DNA from: a virus
Lineage: Duplodnaviria > Heunggongvirae > Uroviricota > Caudoviricetes
Direction: 5' to 3' (one strand)
Virus record (IMG/VR): IMGVR_UViG_2698536450_000012
Coordinates: 1-4,961 of that record
Length of the DNA: 4,961 bases
In this document: positions 1 through 4,961 of the stretch, one piece after another
How positions within the stretch are numbered: position 1 is the stretch's first letter
Layout: each line of letters starts with the position of its first letter
Notes under the pieces: model-generated
What the model saw: the letters and a program-made list of their open reading frames with translations, nothing else
The model's database searches: none
What the model was told of the DNA's origin: nothing
Position numbers and translations under genes: made by a program

Positions 1-84
1 AATGGCAGTGGCTACAGCGACGGCACCTTCTTCCTTTATTGCCTGTTCGTCCGGAATGGCGGCGCAAATAAAGACTTTACTCAT
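1..84 (-). CDS. Hypothetical protein, 5' end only (gene continues past the left edge of the window); N-terminus MSKVFICAAIPDEQAIKEEGAVAVATAI
   Basis: ATG at 84..82 on the minus strand, with a GAGGT Shine-Dalgarno (reverse complement of 93..97) 8 nt upstream. The frame is open to the window edge (28 codons). It is absent from the ORF track because no stop lies inside the window. Confidence 0.5.
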   Translation of the reverse strand, partial: MSKVFICAAIPDEQAIKEEGAVAVATAI

Positions 85-163
85 TTTGTTTTACCTCATT
101 ACAGATTTAAGGGTGAACAAATCCCTGCCATTGCTGGCATATAAAAATGAAACTGGATATTAA

Positions 164-367
164 TTACGGCGCTGTTTTTAATCCTGCCGGGATTTCGTTA
201 TTGTCCATGTGAATAACTTTATCGACCGGATAACAGTTGCCGGGAATTTTCTGTTCCGCTGCGGCAGCCATGCATTCTTTCATTGAGTTGTACATGCCGG
301 TGATTGCATCAAGCGACTCACCAGTATTGAGATGTACAGTCAGAATGAGTATGAATAATGTGTTCAT
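164..367 (-). CDS. Small hypothetical protein (67 aa from the ATG) with a hydrophobic N-terminal segment (MNTLFILILTVHLNTG), possibly a signal peptide or membrane anchor, and two Cys in the C-terminal part
   Basis: ORF track 164..373. The ATG at 367..365 overlaps the TGA stop of the upstream ORF (366..364) as ATGA, which suggests translational coupling. GGAGAG lies 5 nt upstream. The track start at 373 is a GTG two codons further up. Confidence 0.55.
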   Translation of the reverse strand: MNTLFILILTVHLNTGESLDAITGMYNSMKECMAAAAEQKIPGNCYPVDKVIHMDNNEIPAGLKTAP

Positions 368-552
368 CGCCACTCTCCGAAAATACCGAGTTTAAGAAGG
401 GCAATTCTGGAGAGTATGGAATTGTCATTCAGCAGGTAGGGTTCATATTTTCTCATATTGATTGCATCCTCGGTGAAATCCCTGTTACTGAGCAGAACAC
501 CAATATTAAAGCACCCGTCAGACGTATTAACGTTTGGTAGTGACGTTTCCAT
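364..552 (-). CDS. Small hypothetical protein, 62 aa, no recognisable domain
   Basis: ATG at 552..550 lies 10 nt downstream of the rha stop (565..563). A GAGGA Shine-Dalgarno overlaps the rha stop codon with a 7-nt spacer. Same strand and operon context as rha. Confidence 0.55.
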   Translation of the reverse strand: METSLPNVNTSDGCFNIGVLLSNRDFTEDAINMRKYEPYLLNDNSILSRIALLKLGIFGEWR

Positions 553-562
553 TATCGCGTCC

Positions 563-1120
563 TCAACAATGAATTTTTAGCAATTGCTCCACAGTCATAT
601 TTTTAATTGCGCTCCGGTTTACAAGAGTCCATCCTTGTTTCTCCAGATAAAACCGGAAGGTATCCAGGGTGCAGACCATTGCGCCGTCAGGAACGGTTTC
701 AGTGAATTTGATATTGCCGTGTTCGTCGAGACGGATAACTAGGGTGCGTCCGTCCCCGTGAATCATTTTGTCGGGAGACGGGGCGTTATTCTGGCGCAGT
801 TCTTCCTCCATGCGATCGAACTCAGCGATGTAGGCTTCTTTGAAAGTTGCGGCTTTTTTACCTGTGAACCCCATCACCAGGAAAACGAAGCCGTTTTTGG
901 TGATTTGGTACATGGGGCGTTTTTCGCCTTTGGCGTCGGTGTAGGTAACGGGCGTAAAATTGCGCTCGTTAAAATCTTCAGAGCATTCTAGCGTTTCAAT
1001 TTTGCGCAGAACGTCCTTGTGCATTTTGCGGAAGAACTCTGCAACCGCAACAGACGTAGTGACAGCGCGACCATTTTCGATGGTTACGTCAGGGTGAGAA
1101 AGGGTAGGGATAGTAGCCAT
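563..1120 (-). CDS. rha: Phage regulatory protein, Rha family (N-terminal Rha domain MATIPTLSHPDVTIENGRAVTTSVAVAEFFRKMHKDVLRKIETLE...KGEKRPMYQITKNGFVFLVMGFTGKKAATFKEAYIAEFDRMEEEL, plus a C-terminal domain of unknown function)
   Basis: Recognised from memory as the Rha (Phage_pRha) family. Start placed at the ATG at 1120..1118, which has an AAGAGG Shine-Dalgarno (reverse complement of 1129..1134) 8 nt upstream. The ORF track extends the frame to 1417, but that extension contains a terminator-like hairpin with a U-tract and has no domain-like sequence. Confidence 0.8.
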   Translation of the reverse strand: MATIPTLSHPDVTIENGRAVTTSVAVAEFFRKMHKDVLRKIETLECSEDFNERNFTPVTYTDAKGEKRPMYQITKNGFVFLVMGFTGKKAATFKEAYIAEFDRMEEELRQNNAPSPDKMIHGDGRTLVIRLDEHGNIKFTETVPDGAMVCTLDTFRFYLEKQGWTLVNRSAIKNMTVEQLLKIHC

Positions 1121-1150
1121 AATGGCAGCCTCTTGGTTGAGTATTAATAA

Positions 1151-1189
1151 CTCACCACCAAGGTTTTCCACGACCATAAGGGTGGTGAG
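1151..1189 (-). promoter_or_regulatory. Perfect 9-bp inverted repeat (CTCACCACC / GGTGGTGAG) with a 21-nt loop, in the rha 5' leader about 20 nt upstream of the Shine-Dalgarno
   Basis: Read directly: 1151..1159 is the reverse complement of 1181..1189. As RNA on the minus strand the loop contains GUGGAAAAC. Confidence 0.4.
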
Positions 1190-1288
1190 GCGTACAGGGG
1201 TGGAAATACCGGTCAACCAAGAATCCGGCCAGCCTTGCAGCTGCCCTGCACGCCCCACCATAATCTGAATGTGGCTGTGCTTGACGCA

Positions 1289-1312
1289 TAAAAAAACCGC
1301 CTGAGCGCGGTT
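1289..1312 (-). terminator. Candidate intrinsic terminator on the minus strand (stem aaccgc/gcgguu, 6-nt loop, then U7)
   Basis: On the plus strand an A-run (1290..1296) precedes the hairpin at 1295..1312, so on the minus strand the hairpin is followed by UUUUUUU. The stem is short (4 GC and 2 AU pairs), so strength is moderate. Confidence 0.5.
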
Positions 1313-1372
1313 ATGCGCTTGATTGAATTCCGGGTTTCCACGCCCGGCACCCGTTTTATGAGGTGCAGGTGC

Positions 1373-1401
1373 ACTATAATTCCACCCGTTCTGGTTTTCA
1401 A
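1373..1401 (-). promoter_or_regulatory. Candidate sigma70 promoter on the minus strand: -35 TTGAAA (1401..1396), 17-bp spacer, -10 TATAGT (1378..1373); predicted start near 1366
   Basis: Both hexamers match consensus at 5 of 6 positions with the optimal 17-bp spacer. It lies about 75 nt upstream of the terminator at 1289..1312. Confidence 0.4.
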
Positions 1402-1904
1402 TAGCTACATTCAACATTTTCTCTTACCTTTCATCACCGAAGTGAACTTTGTTGATGCGGTGCCTGGTGCCTCCAGGTGACGTTAACCAGTTAACAATTA
1501 ACGCCGGATACAGAGAATCCACCCATAACACTGTTTTTGGTTTTAACTGTTCCGCGTGCGCTGAGCCGCATTCACCGCATCACAAAATTCACTTTAAAAA
1601 GGGCGGCAGAGCAGCCACGGAGTAAAACTGATACTGCCAAACGTCACCAGAAAATTGATAACAGAGGGCGTTGCAGCGGGGTTGTCACTTAAGCGTATGG
1701 TCAACCTGACAACCCGGTGTCCTCAACGGGGAAGGAATAACCCCGCCATACTTACCGCCGCGCCATTTCGCGGAGTGCCACAACCGGAAGCGCACGGTCG
1801 ACGAAAATTTAACGACAGGCTATCTATGAACCAGCAACCTCGCCGTGCACTTTCGCGTTATGCTCTGACTTTTCAGAGAAATATCCTTTCAGTAAACTGT
1901 CAGT

Positions 1905-1954
1905 GCCGGATGTTCACCCGTGTCCGGCGCACGCACTCCACTTCACCCGTGGAG
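1905..1954. other. Two adjacent stem-loops with a shared loop motif TTCACCCGTG (plus strand) / CACGGGUGAA (minus-strand RNA)
   Basis: Hairpin A has stem 1905..1910 / 1923..1928 (gccgga/tccggc) and a 12-nt loop. Hairpin B has stem 1936..1941 / 1949..1954 (ctccac/gtggag) and a 7-nt loop. The 10-mer TTCACCCGTG occurs at 1913..1922 and 1942..1951. Confidence 0.45.
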
Positions 1955-1993
1955 AACTCCTTAATTACCAACCTTAGCTTCGTTGGTTAGCTA

Positions 1994-2212
1994 TTAACGC
2001 GGGTATGTAATCATTCTGGCAATGCTTAATGCCGCTGCTTTTTCCAGATTGGTGATATCCTGCTCCAGAGCGGACAGATTTTCAGCCTGCTTAGCCCTGG
2101 CTTCATTGGCCCATTTCAGGTCCTGCGCTGCCTTAATTTTCTGGTGCATCCACTCATAAAGTTCATCATCGGTATAGTCTGGCGCGATGATGACGGGTTC
2201 TCGTTTCTGCAT
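1994..2212 (-). CDS. Small hypothetical phage protein, 72 aa (MQKREPVIIAPDYTDDELYEWMHQKIKAAQDLKWANEARAKQAENLSALEQDITNLEKAAALSIARMITYPR)
   Basis: ATG at 2212..2210 with an AAGGAG Shine-Dalgarno 5 nt upstream. The sequence looks protein-like (charged, helical). Same orientation as the leftward early operon. Confidence 0.65.
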   Translation of the reverse strand: MQKREPVIIAPDYTDDELYEWMHQKIKAAQDLKWANEARAKQAENLSALEQDITNLEKAAALSIARMITYPR

Positions 2213-2283
2213 GTCGGCTCCTTGTGGTTAGCGTTGCCTGCTTTTAACCACGTCAGGCGAGGTGGTATCCTCTGAGGGGTCTG

Positions 2284-2640
2284 TTACTCGAGAGGAAATT
2301 GGTTATGAATACAATCAAGTTTTCTTGCCCAGAATGTGGCGGCGAAGTCTTTGACACATCCTTTAAACCGCATGGCTCTGACAGTTTCGCGGGAGCCATC
2401 TGCAAAAATTGTGGTCACCTTGTAACTGAAGATGAGTCCTCGCAGTTTGATGACGAAATCGTTGACAATATCTTCGGTGCACTCACCAGAGACTTTCTGA
2501 AGTAAAGGCGCATACCGCTTAGTTACCGCTCTGATAATTCTTACCTGTCCGGCAATGGCGCTGATATCAATATAAAGCGCCATCGCTGTTTCTTTGCTGA
2601 TCCCTGGATGCCTTCCATTCTGATGTTTGACTTCGCCCAC
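2284..2640 (-). CDS. Alternative call: 118-aa ORF immediately downstream of the leftward early promoter (GTG start), fully overlapping the zinc-ribbon ORF on the opposite strand
   Basis: GTG at 2640..2638 with an AGAGGA Shine-Dalgarno and a 7-nt spacer, about 70 nt downstream of the candidate leftward promoter. Against it: 5 of 9 Arg codons are AGA/AGG, there is no recognisable domain, and antisense frames in the same register often stay open by chance. Confidence 0.3.
   Translation of the reverse strand: MGEVKHQNGRHPGISKETAMALYIDISAIAGQVRIIRAVTKRYAPLLQKVSGECTEDIVNDFVIKLRGLIFSYKVTTIFADGSRETVRAMRFKGCVKDFAATFWARKLDCIHNQFPLE
2305..2505 (+). CDS. Small C4 zinc-ribbon protein, 66 aa (CPEC ... CKNC), with an acidic C-terminal tail (EDESSQFDDEIVD)
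   Basis: ATG at 2305 with an AGAGGA Shine-Dalgarno and an 8-nt spacer. Two CxxC pairs are 23 residues apart. Codon usage is ordinary. It is antisense to, and in the same codon register as, the minus ORF 2284..2640, so only one of the two may be real. Confidence 0.55.
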   Translation: MNTIKFSCPECGGEVFDTSFKPHGSDSFAGAICKNCGHLVTEDESSQFDDEIVDNIFGALTRDFLK

Positions 2641-2718
2641 TGAGAAATCCTCTGTTTCCCCTTAACGCCGGGGTAGCGGAACTAAGACCTGTCGCACCGT
2701 TGTGCTTTGATGGAATAC

Positions 2719-2747
2719 ATTGTTCTCTCTAGGTGAACAAAAGTCAA
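2719..2747 (-). promoter_or_regulatory. Candidate leftward early promoter (pL-like) on the minus strand: -35 TTGACT (2747..2742), 17-bp spacer, -10 AACAAT (2724..2719), overlapped by an operator-like inverted repeat TGTTC-N9-GAACA (2721..2739)
   Basis: Same hexamers, spacer length and embedded inverted repeat as the rightward promoter at 3249..3277. It sits immediately downstream of the repressor terminator. Confidence 0.5.
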
Positions 2748-2761
2748 CATGATGAATACGC

Positions 2762-2791
2762 AAAAAAAAAAAAAAACCGCCTTGCGGCGGT
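2762..2791 (-). terminator. Strong intrinsic terminator of the repressor transcript (stem accgcc/ggcggu, GCAA tetraloop, then U15)
   Basis: On the plus strand A15 (2762..2776) is followed by ccgcc ttgc ggcgg (2777..2790). On the minus strand this is a GC hairpin followed by 15 U, about 25 nt downstream of the repressor stop (2813). Confidence 0.8.
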
Positions 2792-2812
2792 ATGATTCTG
2801 TAAAATAAAGAA

Positions 2813-3202
2813 TTATTTTTGTCGTGTTATTGGGTCGACGTATTCTGAGTAAAATTCGGTCAGTTTTTGGAGTCGCATTTGAAAAGCTGCCAGCATATTT
2901 CTACGTTCTACAGGTGGCAGGTTTCTGTAAACATCAAGCAGGGCCTTCTCGTCATCATCAAGCGCCTCTCTATTTGTCTCTTCTTTCCCTGTCAGTAGCC
3001 AAGAAAGGGAAACGTTTGTGGCTTCTGCAATTTTGGCTGCGGAATCTTTACTGATTGTTCCTCTTTTTTTCCATGCGTTGACTGATGAACGACCTACACC
3101 AGCGATACGCGCTAAATCTGAACCACTTAAATGATGCTGTTGAGAGATCGTATCTAACCTTTCTGCTAGCGGGGTGTCGTATTGCTTTTTTCTCATGTCC
3201 AT
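2813..3202 (-). CDS. Prophage repressor, XRE-type helix-turn-helix (cI / RacR / DicA-like), 129 aa
   Basis: Helix-turn-helix motif LSGSDLARIAGVGRSSVNAWKKRG. Divergent from the Cro-like gene. A consensus TATAAT ends 7 nt before the ATG, which predicts a leaderless transcript with no Shine-Dalgarno, as for lambda cI from pRM. Confidence 0.85.
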   Translation of the reverse strand: MDMRKKQYDTPLAERLDTISQQHHLSGSDLARIAGVGRSSVNAWKKRGTISKDSAAKIAEATNVSLSWLLTGKEETNREALDDDEKALLDVYRNLPPVERRNMLAAFQMRLQKLTEFYSEYVDPITRQK

Positions 3203-3208
3203 TTGGCA

Positions 3209-3236
3209 ATTATAACCGTTCAGTGAACACTAACAA
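3209..3236 (-). promoter_or_regulatory. Candidate repressor-maintenance promoter (pRM-like) on the minus strand: -35 TTGTTA (3236..3231), 16-bp spacer, -10 TATAAT (3214..3209); the spacer contains the palindrome GTTCAgTGAAC (3218..3228)
   Basis: Hexamers and spacing read directly. The predicted transcription start coincides with the A of the repressor ATG at 3202. Confidence 0.5.
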
Positions 3237-3248
3237 TTCCTCGAGGTG

Positions 3249-3277
3249 TTGACTTGTGTTCGTTTTAAGTGAACAAT
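3249..3277 (+). promoter_or_regulatory. Candidate rightward early promoter (pR-like): -35 TTGACT (3249..3254), 17-bp spacer, -10 AACAAT (3272..3277), overlapped by an operator-like inverted repeat TGTTC-N9-GAACA (3257..3275)
   Basis: Back-to-back with the pRM-like promoter. A GGAGG Shine-Dalgarno (3297..3301) precedes the ATG at 3306. Confidence 0.5.
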
Positions 3278-3305
3278 CGTTGTGGTTAGTTGAACTGGAG
3301 GTTGT

Positions 3306-3581
3306 ATGACAGCATTGGACAAAGCAATAAAGATTGCTGGTGGTATTCGTCCGCTAGGGCGTGCAATAGGGGCTTGGCCATCTCAAATACACAAATGGGC
3401 AAATGAATACAATGGTCGAGTGCCGACGGGAGAACGGGTTCGTCAAATTTATATTGCAACTGGGGTTACTCCTCATGAATTGCGACCAGATTTATACCCG
3501 AATCCAACTGACGGGTTGCCTGCTGGAGATAAGGCTAACACACCAAATACACCGGAGTTGATTCATGAAAATCAAGCATGA
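3306..3581 (+). CDS. ydaS: Cro-like DNA-binding regulator, YdaS family, 91 aa
   Basis: Divergent from the repressor, with a GGAGG Shine-Dalgarno. The motif GVTPHELRPDLYP is typical of the YdaS / Cro-type family as recalled from memory. Confidence 0.8.
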   Translation: MTALDKAIKIAGGIRPLGRAIGAWPSQIHKWANEYNGRVPTGERVRQIYIATGVTPHELRPDLYPNPTDGLPAGDKANTPNTPELIHENQA

Positions 3582-3990
3582 ACACATCCGCATGGCGATG
3601 AATGCCTGGGCGCGTCCTGATGGCGAAAAAGTTCCAGCAGCTGGAATAACCCAGGCTTATTTTGAGTTGGGTATGACGTTTCCTGAACTGTATGACGACA
3701 GCCATCCGGAAGCCCTGGCTCGCAATACACAGAAAATTTTCCGCTGGGTAGAGAAAGACACCCCTGATGCAGTTGAAAAAATTCAGGCGTTGTTACCAGC
3801 GATCGAAAAGGCAATGCCACCTTTGCTGGTGGCCAGAATGCGCAGCCACAGTTCAGCTTATTTTCGGGAGCTGGTGGAGACGCGGGAGCGACTGGTGAGA
3901 GACGCTGATGATTTTGTCGCAGTGGCAATCGCCGGTTTCAATCAGATGAACCGTGGTGGCCCGGCAGGAAATGCTGTGGCAGTACATTGA
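3565..3990 (+). CDS. ydaT: YdaT-family regulator, 141 aa, in the cII-equivalent position
   Basis: The N-terminus MKIKHEHI and the C-terminal ...AVAVH match what I recall of Rac YdaT. The start overlaps the ydaS-like stop by 17 nt. GGAG lies 8 nt upstream. Confidence 0.8.
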   Translation: MKIKHEHIRMAMNAWARPDGEKVPAAGITQAYFELGMTFPELYDDSHPEALARNTQKIFRWVEKDTPDAVEKIQALLPAIEKAMPPLLVARMRSHSSAYFRELVETRERLVRDADDFVAVAIAGFNQMNRGGPAGNAVAVH

Positions 3991-4061
3991 CTGACAATAG
4001 CCATATCGAATCGCTTCCGGCAACTCGTGAGTAAAATGATTCGGTATCAGAAGAGGTGAGT

Positions 4062-4961
4062 ATGGCTAACGCCTGGCTCAGATTATGGCATGACATGCCA
4101 AATGACCCTAAGTGGCGAACAATTGCCAGGGTGTCAGGGCAGCCAATTGCAACAGTGATGGCAGTGTATATCCACCTCCTGGTGAGCGCGTCACGAAATG
4201 TCACGCGAGGTCACATTGATGTCACGACAGAAGATTTGGCAAGTGCGCTCGACGTGACAGAAGAGGTAATTGATTCAATTTTGCAGACGATGCAGGGGCG
4301 GGTACTTGATGGTGATTTAATCACTGGATGGGAAAAACGCCAGGTGCTGAAAGAGGACAACGGCAATATTTCGCAAACCGCAAAATCTCCTGCAGAGCGC
4401 AAGAGGGCGCAGCGAGAGAGGGAAAGAAAGCGGGAACAAAATGGCGATTGTCACGGCGCGTCACGAAATGTCACGCACATGTCACGACGAGTCACGACAG
4501 ATAAAGATACAGATAAAGATACAGATCAAGAAGATCAAAACACTATGGTCCATGGCGTAAAAAACGCCACGAACCAGGCAGGGGATGTTCAGACCGTCAA
4601 TCCTGGTCAGCCAGCAGGCACGACACCGGAAGCCGATTCAGCGTATGCGCTGAAAGCCGATTCGGGCGCTGTGCAGCAGGTGATGACCGCAAGGCCGGAG
4701 CAATCACACCAACTGCAGCAGCCTGAAGCCGATTCCGCCATTCAGCGGGAAGCCGATCGGGTAGTCCCGGAAAGCACCGGGCAGTCTGTGGGACGAGTGG
4801 ATTATCCGGATGTGTTCGAACAGGTCTGGCGGGAATACCCGTTGCGTGCCGGGGCAAACCCGAAGAAATCCGCTTTCAGTGCCTGGAAGGCCAGATTGCG
4901 CGAGGGGGTGCCACCAGAGACCATGCTGGATGGTGTGAGGCGTTACGCGAGATACCTGGCG
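4062..4961 (+). CDS. Phage replication initiation / replisome-organizer-type protein, 3' end outside the window (300 codons open to the edge); YdaU / lambda-O-equivalent position; family assignment unverified
   Basis: ATG at 4062 with an AGAGGTGA Shine-Dalgarno. Translated by hand with no stop to position 4961 (MANAWLRLWHDMPNDPKWRTIARVSGQPIATVMAVYIHLL...). Two iteron clusters lie inside the gene. It is absent from the ORF track because it has no stop. Confidence 0.8.
   Translation, partial: MANAWLRLWHDMPNDPKWRTIARVSGQPIATVMAVYIHLLVSASRNVTRGHIDVTTEDLASALDVTEEVIDSILQTMQGRVLDGDLITGWEKRQVLKEDNGNISQTAKSPAERKRAQRERERKREQNGDCHGASRNVTHMSRRVTTDKDTDKDTDQEDQNTMVHGVKNATNQAGDVQTVNPGQPAGTTPEADSAYALKADSGAVQQVMTARPEQSHQLQQPEADSAIQREADRVVPESTGQSVGRVDYPDVFEQVWREYPLRAGANPKKSAFSAWKARLREGVPPETMLDGVRRYARYLA
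4190..4230. repeat. Iteron cluster 1: four GTCACG/GTCACA repeats at 10-11 bp spacing (4190, 4200, 4210, 4221)
   Basis: Read directly: gtcacgaaat gtcacgcgag gtcacattgat gtcacgacag. The spacing is helically phased. Confidence 0.6.
4450..4541. repeat. Iteron cluster 2: five GTCACG repeats (4450, 4460, 4470, 4481, 4491), then an A-rich tract with a tandem 12-bp repeat CAGATAAAGATA x2 (4498..4521) and two GATC sites (4524, 4533); candidate phage origin of replication
   Basis: Read directly. The 18-mer GCGTCACGAAATGTCACG is shared between the two clusters (4187..4204 and 4457..4474). Iterons followed by an AT-rich segment inside the initiator gene mirror the lambda origin within gene O. Confidence 0.6.

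Follow-up and report, generated by a model that had tools for sequence, protein, structure and literature searches.

The window analyzed here is a 4,961-nucleotide (nt) stretch of a Caudoviricetes genome (IMG/VR record IMGVR_UViG_2698536450_000012, positions 1 to 4,961) and covers the immunity genes and the early genes next to them in an E. coli prophage of the Qin/PPompW-like lambdoid type. Within it, a small zinc-ribbon open reading frame (ORF) on the plus strand lies entirely inside a longer, conserved ORF on the minus strand. On balance, the sequence evidence leads us to read positions 2236–2640 as a compact two-strand cassette, in which both frames would code and would be expressed in alternation, with an accessory function for the zinc-ribbon protein. 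An earlier sequence-only reading of this DNA had singled out the zinc-ribbon ORF as a candidate host-takeover or anti-defense factor and had overlooked the conserved antisense ORF that contains it.

The zinc-ribbon gene of the ECs_2282 family

The zinc-ribbon ORF occupies positions 2305–2505 of the plus strand, as the sequence-only reading had placed it, and encodes a 66-amino acid (aa), 7.2-kDa protein (MNTIKFSCPECGGEVFDTSFKPHGSDSFAGAICKNCGHLVTEDESSQFDDEIVDNIFGALTRDFLK) between an ATG at 2305 and a TAA at 2503–2505. The protein contains two cysteine pairs, C8-x2-C11 and C33-x2-C36, followed by a T41-E-D-E motif and an acidic amphipathic segment, and has a net charge of −7 and an isoelectric point (pI) of 4.4. 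The first pair had been numbered correctly before, but the second had been given as C35/C38, a result of mixing start codons: counted from TTG 2299, C35/C38 hold, but the first pair then becomes C10/C13. Similarly, the strongly acidic C-terminus described earlier is found at residues 42–57 (EDESSQFDDEIVDNIF), where 7 of 16 residues are acidic, but does not extend to the last nine residues, GALTRDFLK. Translation probably begins at ATG 2305, which RefSeq also uses; the Shine-Dalgarno sequence GAGAGGAAA (2290–2298, plus strand; read from the sequence) has its GAGG core 9 nt from this ATG. TTG 2299 was considered as a start and rejected, as its Shine-Dalgarno spacing is too short.

The protein matches the NCBIfam model NF047912, the “ECs_2282 family putative zinc-binding protein”, with 57.4 bits (E = 1e-15; curated cut-off 37), with residues 4–59 aligning to model positions 1–56 of 60. 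RefSeq carries the ORF as a coding sequence in H1 and H2 and names it after the ECs_2282 family. Such a strong score, combined with cysteines that are kept in homologues, is far beyond chance. We hold with high confidence that the plus-strand ORF is a genuine ECs_2282-family gene. A literature search for ECs2282/ECs_2282, the WP accessions, and NF047912 found no paper, function, or structure, and an E. coli overlapping-gene preprint does not mention the locus. A profile search of PDB sequences returned generic zinc-ribbon or spurious matches only.

The cassette, which measures 357 bp, is present in 937 of 5426 complete E. coli genomes (17%) and was also found in PPompW-type and Stx2a-converting phage records. 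Homologues from Citrobacter, Klebsiella, and Enterobacter (59–83% identity) retain the start, the Shine-Dalgarno sequence, and the stop position, and 29 residues are invariant among them, including three of the four cysteines. C33 is missing solely in one frameshifted metagenome variant, and all four cysteines are invariant in full-length homologues. Over a range of 59–97% identity, the ATG and the Shine-Dalgarno sequence are preserved together with the four cysteines. The frame, the ATG, the Shine-Dalgarno sequence, and the four cysteines persist in homologues down to ~25% identity, with an AGGA or GAGG located 6–9 nt 5′ of the ATG in the enterobacterial homologues and in three of four remote phage homologues. 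Substitutions in plus codons 2–50 are distributed 130:67:212 over positions 1, 2, and 3, and the ratio of nonsynonymous to synonymous substitution rates (dN/dS) of the plus frame is 0.23, the lowest of the six frames, with pairwise values of 0.23–0.27. Counting events along a tree built from 45 unique alleles gave ~0.3, with an NN/SN ratio of 0.33 (N, nonsynonymous; S, synonymous), and the low plus-frame dN/dS was replicated in a second clade. The sequence-only reading had raised the question of whether the plus frame is conserved in homologues; it is, and a dN/dS of 0.23–0.33 across methods indicates purifying selection.

An exhaustive profile search recovered 82 clusters (50% identity), mostly of 63–75 aa, with the consensus M...F.CP.CG...F......DDF.GA.C..CGH..TEDD(I/V)..QA..IA..L. 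The knuckle spacer measures 21 residues in 66 of the 75 relatives that have a CxxC...CxxC pattern, and the T-E-D-D-(I/V) motif, followed by an amphipathic helix, is conserved across the family. The tails of 75 remote relatives have a median charge of +1, with 7 of them at −3 or lower. Judging from these sequences, the acidic tail is a trait of the enterobacterial subfamily, the tails elsewhere being neutral to basic. At three loci (L096, L099, and L141), the zinc-ribbon gene is co-oriented with its neighbors and the antisense frame either contains stops or lacks a start, which shows that the zinc-ribbon family also occurs by itself. A scan of genome contigs found two zinc knuckles only, both unrelated, and a viral scan with an alignment of remote members found a single locus, L140.

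The surroundings of the remote homologues include an IS1595-family DDE transposase gene, which adjoins them in three of six independent contexts looked up (L096, 2706–3674; L098, 3911–4825; L102, 2537–3487; L103, 1754–2704). The idea that the cassette is a passenger of an insertion sequence was rejected, as no terminal inverted repeats enclosing it were found (L096, L098, L102/L103).

A conserved ORF antisense to the zinc-ribbon gene

The minus-strand ORF spans positions 2284–2583 and encodes 99 aa, or 118 aa from an alternative GTG start at 2640. The zinc-ribbon ORF is wholly contained in it and in codon register, so that plus positions 1, 2, and 3 face minus positions 3, 2, and 1. The minus ORF opens the early-left (dicB-type) operon, which DicA represses, as its first ORF and matches phrog_21318 (E = 3e-66) and phrog_29546 (E = 0.013). 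The latter is also matched by the minus ORFs of six of seven remote phage-type loci (L098, L102, L140, L142, L143, L144, and L145), a small sample of seven lineages beside the enterobacterial clade, whose zinc-ribbon proteins are ~25–35% identical. Five of the six match at 5e-7 to 8e-12, and L145, itself a member of phrog_29546, at 9e-61; the minus ORF of L140 had no PHROG match. Internal minus-frame stops are absent from 45 unique enterobacterial alleles and from the seven remote phage loci, and the ORF ends three codons early in L007 and L008 only. Both frames are open in homologues, apart from plus alleles with a stop at codon 14 (E14*) or 44 (E44*). An in-register frame yields shadow ORFs easily, however, and is also open in the stand-alone locus L099; openness alone therefore proves nothing, and we rejected it as evidence when taken by itself.

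The minus ORF has a start codon with a Shine-Dalgarno sequence in the same position in most homologues, whereas the start of L009 lies further upstream. In L140, the minus start overlaps the stop codon of the gene before it (ATGA) and stands behind an AGGAGG Shine-Dalgarno sequence. The minus ORF is co-oriented with the adjacent genes in all phage contexts examined, where it lies after the leftward promoter, a cro or cII-position gene, arc-ant or KilA/Rha antirepressor genes, or a tape-measure gene. In three phages, it follows antirepressor-type genes (arc-ant, ORF6N, KilA/Rha) within the same operon (L150, 2471–4035; L142, 969–2580; L145, 2971–4872). In Klebsiella phage 2b LV-2017 (L144, 2986–3453), the cassette sits in the tail module, directly after the tape-measure gene. 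The minus ORF annotated there, of 155 aa, joins phrog_21096, over its N-terminal 60 aa, to phrog_29546, and may be a fusion or have an over-extended start.

Public annotation of the locus switches strand between strains. Where the plus ORF is intact, it is the one annotated by RefSeq; in the inspected O157:H7 and O121 genomes, whose plus frame is interrupted by E14*, RefSeq annotates the minus ORF instead (WP_001240336.1). The minus strand was likewise chosen by the submitters of the three phage genomes inspected. Gene catalogues therefore undercount the locus.

Coding signature of region C and conservation in the overlap

The first 26 codons of the minus ORF, here called region C, lie outside the zinc-ribbon ORF (2506–2583, minus strand; window sequence MALYIDISAIAGQVRIIRAVTKRYAP). 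Differences in region C are distributed 177:91:106 over minus positions 3, 2, and 1. The minus frame has the lowest dN/dS of the six frames, 0.30, and is free of stops; estimates range from 0.30 to 0.53 across methods, and 49 of 109 events are synonymous in an event-based count, versus 33 expected. In this N-terminal stretch, the minus frame evolves under purifying selection. The remote phage loci share a region C peptide motif, h-x-h-[DEN]-[TA]-[ST]-x-h-x-x-Q-h-x-x-L. A leave-one-out profile of this motif gave p < 0.001 in six of the seven loci against 1000 composition-preserving shuffles, and the minus frame is the best-scoring of the six frames. Scored with the remote profile, four of five enterobacterial region C sequences reached p ~0.002–0.003, the window's own sequence giving 0.09. 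Nucleotide-level conservation cannot persist between loci whose zinc-ribbon proteins have diverged this far, which argues that region C is kept as a peptide.

In the overlap, minus-frame identity between phage-type loci amounts to 0.85 of plus-frame identity, a ratio that drops to 0.63–0.69 in comparisons with stand-alone loci. At this locus, the overlap has an antisense NN/NS of 0.63, an SN/SS of 0.49, and an antisense dN/dS of 0.5–0.6, and six control genes from the same loci span 0.64–2.49 and 0.52–1.38 for the first two ratios. These values suggest that, within the overlap, conservation of the minus frame falls short of that of the plus frame yet exceeds what a shadow frame should show. 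An independent clade of Klebsiella and Enterobacter phages repeats both patterns at the sequence level: its overlap has 12 plus-synonymous/minus-nonsynonymous changes versus 5 of the opposite kind, and single-base changes in its region C are distributed 6:2:3 over minus positions 3, 2, and 1. Taking region C and the overlap together with the start signals and orientation, we consider that the minus ORF is probably a functional gene as well.

Candidate expression signals around the cassette

Upstream of the zinc-ribbon gene, a candidate sigma-70 promoter spans positions 2244–2271 of the plus strand, with a −35 element TTAACC (2244–2249), a 16-nt spacer, a TG at 2263–2264, and a −10 element TATCCT (2266–2271). 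It is embedded in a block that begins at 2236, GCCTG.CTTTT.ACCAC.TCAGGC..GGTGGTAT..T, which is kept in the E. coli, Citrobacter, K. michiganensis, and Enterobacter cassettes, whereas the DNA further upstream diverges between the four clades. Downstream of the gene, folding predicts a conserved hairpin at 2555–2583 with the arms ATGGCGCT (2555–2562) and AGCGCCAT (2576–2583). In an alignment of nine sequences, 89% of its cells are paired and two pairs have changed on both sides, a weak covariation signal whose score was reached by 8 of 500 shuffles. On the plus strand, T-rich sequence comes after the hairpin, which may terminate the zinc-ribbon transcript; read on the minus strand, the hairpin extends over the ATG of the 99-aa ORF. 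A moron, an autonomous insert in a phage operon, would bring its own promoter and terminator; the candidate counterparts here are the conserved promoter-like block and the conserved hairpin, the latter having no adjacent U-run.

The zinc-ribbon ORF points toward the early-left promoter (PL/dicBp-like, TTGACT-17-AACAAT; 2719–2747, minus strand; promoter scan) and is antisense to the operon that this promoter drives. The candidate plus promoter is convergent with the repressed leftward promoter, ~450 bp away. The sequence-only reading had described the gene as lying beside the repressor, which is true in a loose sense: the ORF ends 307 nt from the repressor stop, and a terminator (2776–2791) and the early-left promoter lie between the two. 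A promoter-like element of its own that faces a repressed early promoter makes an accessory role in the lysogen plausible for the zinc-ribbon gene. In L009 (3323–3823), the gene immediately 5′ of the zinc-ribbon gene is sieB, a superinfection exclusion gene that is co-oriented with it and opposite to the early-left operon. This single case fits a lysogen-expressed accessory cluster.

Alternative explanations

Several points weigh against the two-strand cassette. The expression of either strand is predicted from sequence signals, of which the candidate plus promoter matches 8 of 12 hexamer positions plus the TG, and the hairpin at 2555–2583, lacking an adjacent U-run, departs from a canonical terminator; for the function, the arguments are gene organization and analogy only. 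AlphaFold modeled the zinc-ribbon protein from a 39-sequence alignment with a predicted local distance difference test (pLDDT) score of 53, which is unusable for a fold search. E14* (GAA to TAA) interrupts the zinc-ribbon frame at 18 of 128 sampled loci, as well as in the two O157:H7 and O121 genomes inspected (L146 and L147; equivalent to window 2344–2346), so that some lineages evidently do without the zinc-ribbon protein. On the minus strand, the signal of selection within the overlap is no more than suggestive: one control gene comes near the same value, and second-codon-position effects confound NN/NS. The minus protein has an AlphaFold pLDDT of 65, Foldseek searches of its model against BFVD and PDB gave no match below E = 0.07, and tblastn with a minus protein retrieved only phages that also carry the zinc-ribbon frame, leaving the minus protein unproven as an independent family. 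The moderate structure prediction, the lack of a matching known fold, and a minus protein never seen without the plus ORF also favor an explanation in which only the zinc-ribbon gene codes. The minus frame would then be a shadow ORF, or would be open or translated merely to shield read-through operon transcripts from Rho-dependent polarity, and region C would be a 3′ untranslated region or terminator hairpin. An in-register antisense frame is readily kept open, since the sense codons that would give it a stop (TTA, CTA, and TCA) are rare, and the stand-alone locus L099 provides an example; in addition, the plus frame is always the better conserved of the two in the overlap, and the region C hairpin has two compensatory pairs. 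This explanation does not, however, account for the amino acids of region C that are kept in the minus frame between phages with such divergent zinc-ribbon proteins, for a wobble periodicity that tracks the minus frame in two independent clades, for Shine-Dalgarno sequences and start codons found at the same place, with ATGA coupling in L140, or for a minus conservation in the overlap above the baseline of the stand-alone loci. We consider it unlikely.

The nonsense alleles bear on the converse explanation, in which only the minus ORF works in prophages, as an early-operon protein, and the zinc-ribbon frame is an unexpressed relic that the minus ORF has overprinted. E14* and E44*, the latter at one locus, both strike the plus frame, none strikes the interior of the minus frame, and E14* amounts to an F-to-L change in a minus ORF that is otherwise intact. 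The cassette is also always oriented to suit the minus ORF, which is the one that submitters of phage genomes annotate. However, all phage-type loci keep TGY at each of the four cysteine codons, which speaks against a relic because a minus-only gene would have free third positions of Ala/Thr codons there; moreover, the plus frame keeps its low dN/dS within clades, and its ATG and Shine-Dalgarno sequence are conserved even though they fall outside the minus ORF. A relic seems improbable to us. The mechanism favored by the sequence-only reading, in which the acidic tail would inhibit a nucleic-acid enzyme, as YacG does with gyrase or an Ocr-type DNA mimic with restriction enzymes, fits a small, acidic protein that is zinc-binding by motif and occupies an accessory position in a prophage regulatory region. 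It also finds two weak matches, to the PADLOC candidate PDC-M14A (E = 0.0015) and to a Lar-like restriction alleviation protein (phrog_6422; E = 0.023, 16 bits), the latter covering the zinc-knuckle region only and not significant. The proposed likeness to YacG and Ocr did not bear out: no YacG model was matched in NCBIfam at E ≤ 0.01 or among the best 25 of 34 Pfam matches (E ≤ 1), and neither family appears among the matches listed for NCBIfam, Pfam, PHROG, and PADLOC. Acidity is limited to the enterobacterial subfamily, most relatives having neutral or basic tails, and charge-based mimicry is therefore not a property of the family. A 66-aa protein with its net charge is far from an Ocr-like surface, and a gene that faces the early promoter should be off in lytic growth, when takeover factors act. 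An anti-defense or host-takeover factor of this kind appears highly improbable, and we give a YacG- or Ocr-like mechanism as such very little credence.

A model of the two-strand cassette

In the model that we put forward for the two-strand cassette, the plus strand would hold a self-contained small gene composed of the promoter-like element, the Shine-Dalgarno sequence, the 66-aa ORF, and the hairpin. Its predicted product is a four-cysteine ribbon followed by an amphipathic helix, which is acidic in the enterobacterial ECs_2282 subfamily. The minus strand would provide an ORF of 99–118 aa, the first to be transcribed from the DicA/CI-repressed leftward promoter. In the lysogen, with the leftward promoter repressed, the zinc-ribbon gene would be transcribed and its protein made. 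Upon induction, leftward transcription would yield the minus protein, then YdfC, DicF, and DicB, and would silence the zinc-ribbon gene through transcriptional collision and antisense RNA.

The zinc-ribbon protein would most likely bind a partner protein through its ribbon and helix. Its small size, the conserved ribbon-helix layout, and the variable charge of the helix favor such partner-specific binding over charge mimicry. The role could be that of a lysogen accessory protein, acting in superinfection exclusion or in the control of a host or phage protein; by analogy, superinfection exclusion or a similar accessory role is a possibility that we raise with some doubt.

The distribution of the two frames may also say something of their history. 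The embedded zinc-ribbon gene is the older of the two, because it also occurs alone, and a minus protein never found without the plus frame fits overprinting on a pre-existing zinc-ribbon gene. Tentatively, at somewhat less than even confidence, we picture an old dual-coding module among temperate phages of distant hosts, in which a minus protein of ~95 aa was overprinted on the older zinc-ribbon gene, the two phases of expression are mutually exclusive through convergent promoters, and selection has kept the arrangement.

Genomic setting of the cassette

In the operon, the minus ORF is followed by ydfC (1994–2212, minus strand; RefSeq annotation), which is 96% identical to K-12 ydfC. The DicF RNA follows at 1601–1652, and then a 284-codon ORF of the Rha/Ash type (563–1417), whose Rha domain begins at about residue 109, dicB (364–552), and a DUF1482 gene (164–373), all on the minus strand. 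A C4 antisense RNA (1178–1265) and an isrK RNA (1290–1366), which like DicF score above the Rfam gathering threshold on the minus strand, fall within the 5′ third of ORF 563–1417; matches to the c4 a1/b1 targets and to STnc100 in window 1178–1652 (minus strand) were below threshold. RefSeq annotates the full length of the corresponding 855-bp ORF of strain KFu019 as a Rha gene. ORF 563–1417 may be over-called, and the true Rha gene could begin near ATG 1122, under a P1-type c4/antirepressor control.

On the other side of the cassette, a 129-aa CI/DicA-type repressor is encoded at 2813–3202 of the minus strand (PF07022, E = 1.7e-12); it scores 37 bits against the DicA model NF007257, under the cut-off of 101. 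Further along, the plus strand contains a YdaS/Cro-like gene (3306–3581), a YdaT-like gene (3565–3990), and an ORF that starts at 4063 and runs off the window end, in a slot occupied by a replication-region gene in RefSeq neighbors. A rightward promoter at 3249–3277 (plus strand) has hexamers identical to those of the early-left promoter, and both are surrounded by GTGAACA-like repeats, presumably the operators of the repressor. A terminator scan placed the repressor gene's intrinsic terminator, ACCGCCGCAAGGCGGT with a T run behind it, at 2776–2791 of the minus strand. Read on the plus strand, the same hairpin (CCGCCTTGCGGCGG) is preceded by a run of ~15 A (window 2762–2791) and has no U-run; plus transcripts of the cassette might thus enter the repressor gene in antisense.

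Comparison with known systems

The window protein is a member of the ECs_2282 family by its full-length match and four cysteines. The NF047912 model spans the enterobacterial subfamily and does not describe the wider family of 82 clusters found here. YacG is likewise a small zinc protein of the Cys4 type, and its C-terminal part is acidic; Ocr, too, is acidic. Unlike YacG, the family of the window protein has the knuckle spacing C-x2-C-x21-C-x2-C in 66 of 75 relatives, and its acidity is not conserved.

The closest positional counterpart in E. coli K-12 is the ydfA-ydfB pair of the Qin prophage, which occupies the same slot between the DicA-repressed promoter and ydfC-dicF-dicB and has no sequence similarity to the cassette. 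Window 2212–2813 and K-12 NC_000913.3 1648341–1648823 have only ydfC and a 29-bp leader (~2655–2683) in common, and the exchange of ydfA/ydfB for the two-strand cassette is a clean module swap in the dicB operon. Directly upstream of ydfC-DicF-DicB, a lysogen product of the cassette or the collision of its promoters could affect the control of a toxic operon.

Functional coding by long antisense ORFs in bacteria and phages is disputed, and most proposed cases are young and lineage-restricted. The pair described here is conserved in phages of Escherichia, Citrobacter, Klebsiella, and Enterobacter, as well as in uncultured phage contigs. Natural alleles disable one frame and spare the other, as E14* does, which makes the case easily testable.

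A similar gene organization has been reported for the P. aeruginosa phage Fc02, in which olg1 (sie1, 7.9 kDa), expressed in the lysogen, lies next to the repressor and antisense to the early-lytic gene 10 (PMC9936078). The two Fc02 strands are expressed in alternation, both products are translated, and both confer superinfection exclusion (PMC9936078). The window shares with Fc02 a small gene antisense to an early operon gene, although its pair is known from sequence alone. Unlike Olg1, which was reported to resemble a DEDDh exonuclease domain (PMC9936078), the window protein is a zinc ribbon. The comparison carries no evidence of homology, as the Fc02 sequences were not directly compared; tblastn of the window protein against phage genomes retrieved no Pseudomonas phage.

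Antisense genes embedded in other ORFs are also represented in E. coli O157:H7 by nog1, asa, ano, pop, and laoB, which, as far as the descriptions in these reports go, are young and backed by ribosome profiling and phenotypes (PMC9927249, PMC6294744, PMC5960689, PMC7103648, PMC5810103). Like them, the zinc-ribbon ORF is embedded antisense in another ORF and occurs in E. coli. Unlike them, the two frames of the window are known by their sequence, are conserved across distant phage lineages, and have the embedded gene as the older partner.

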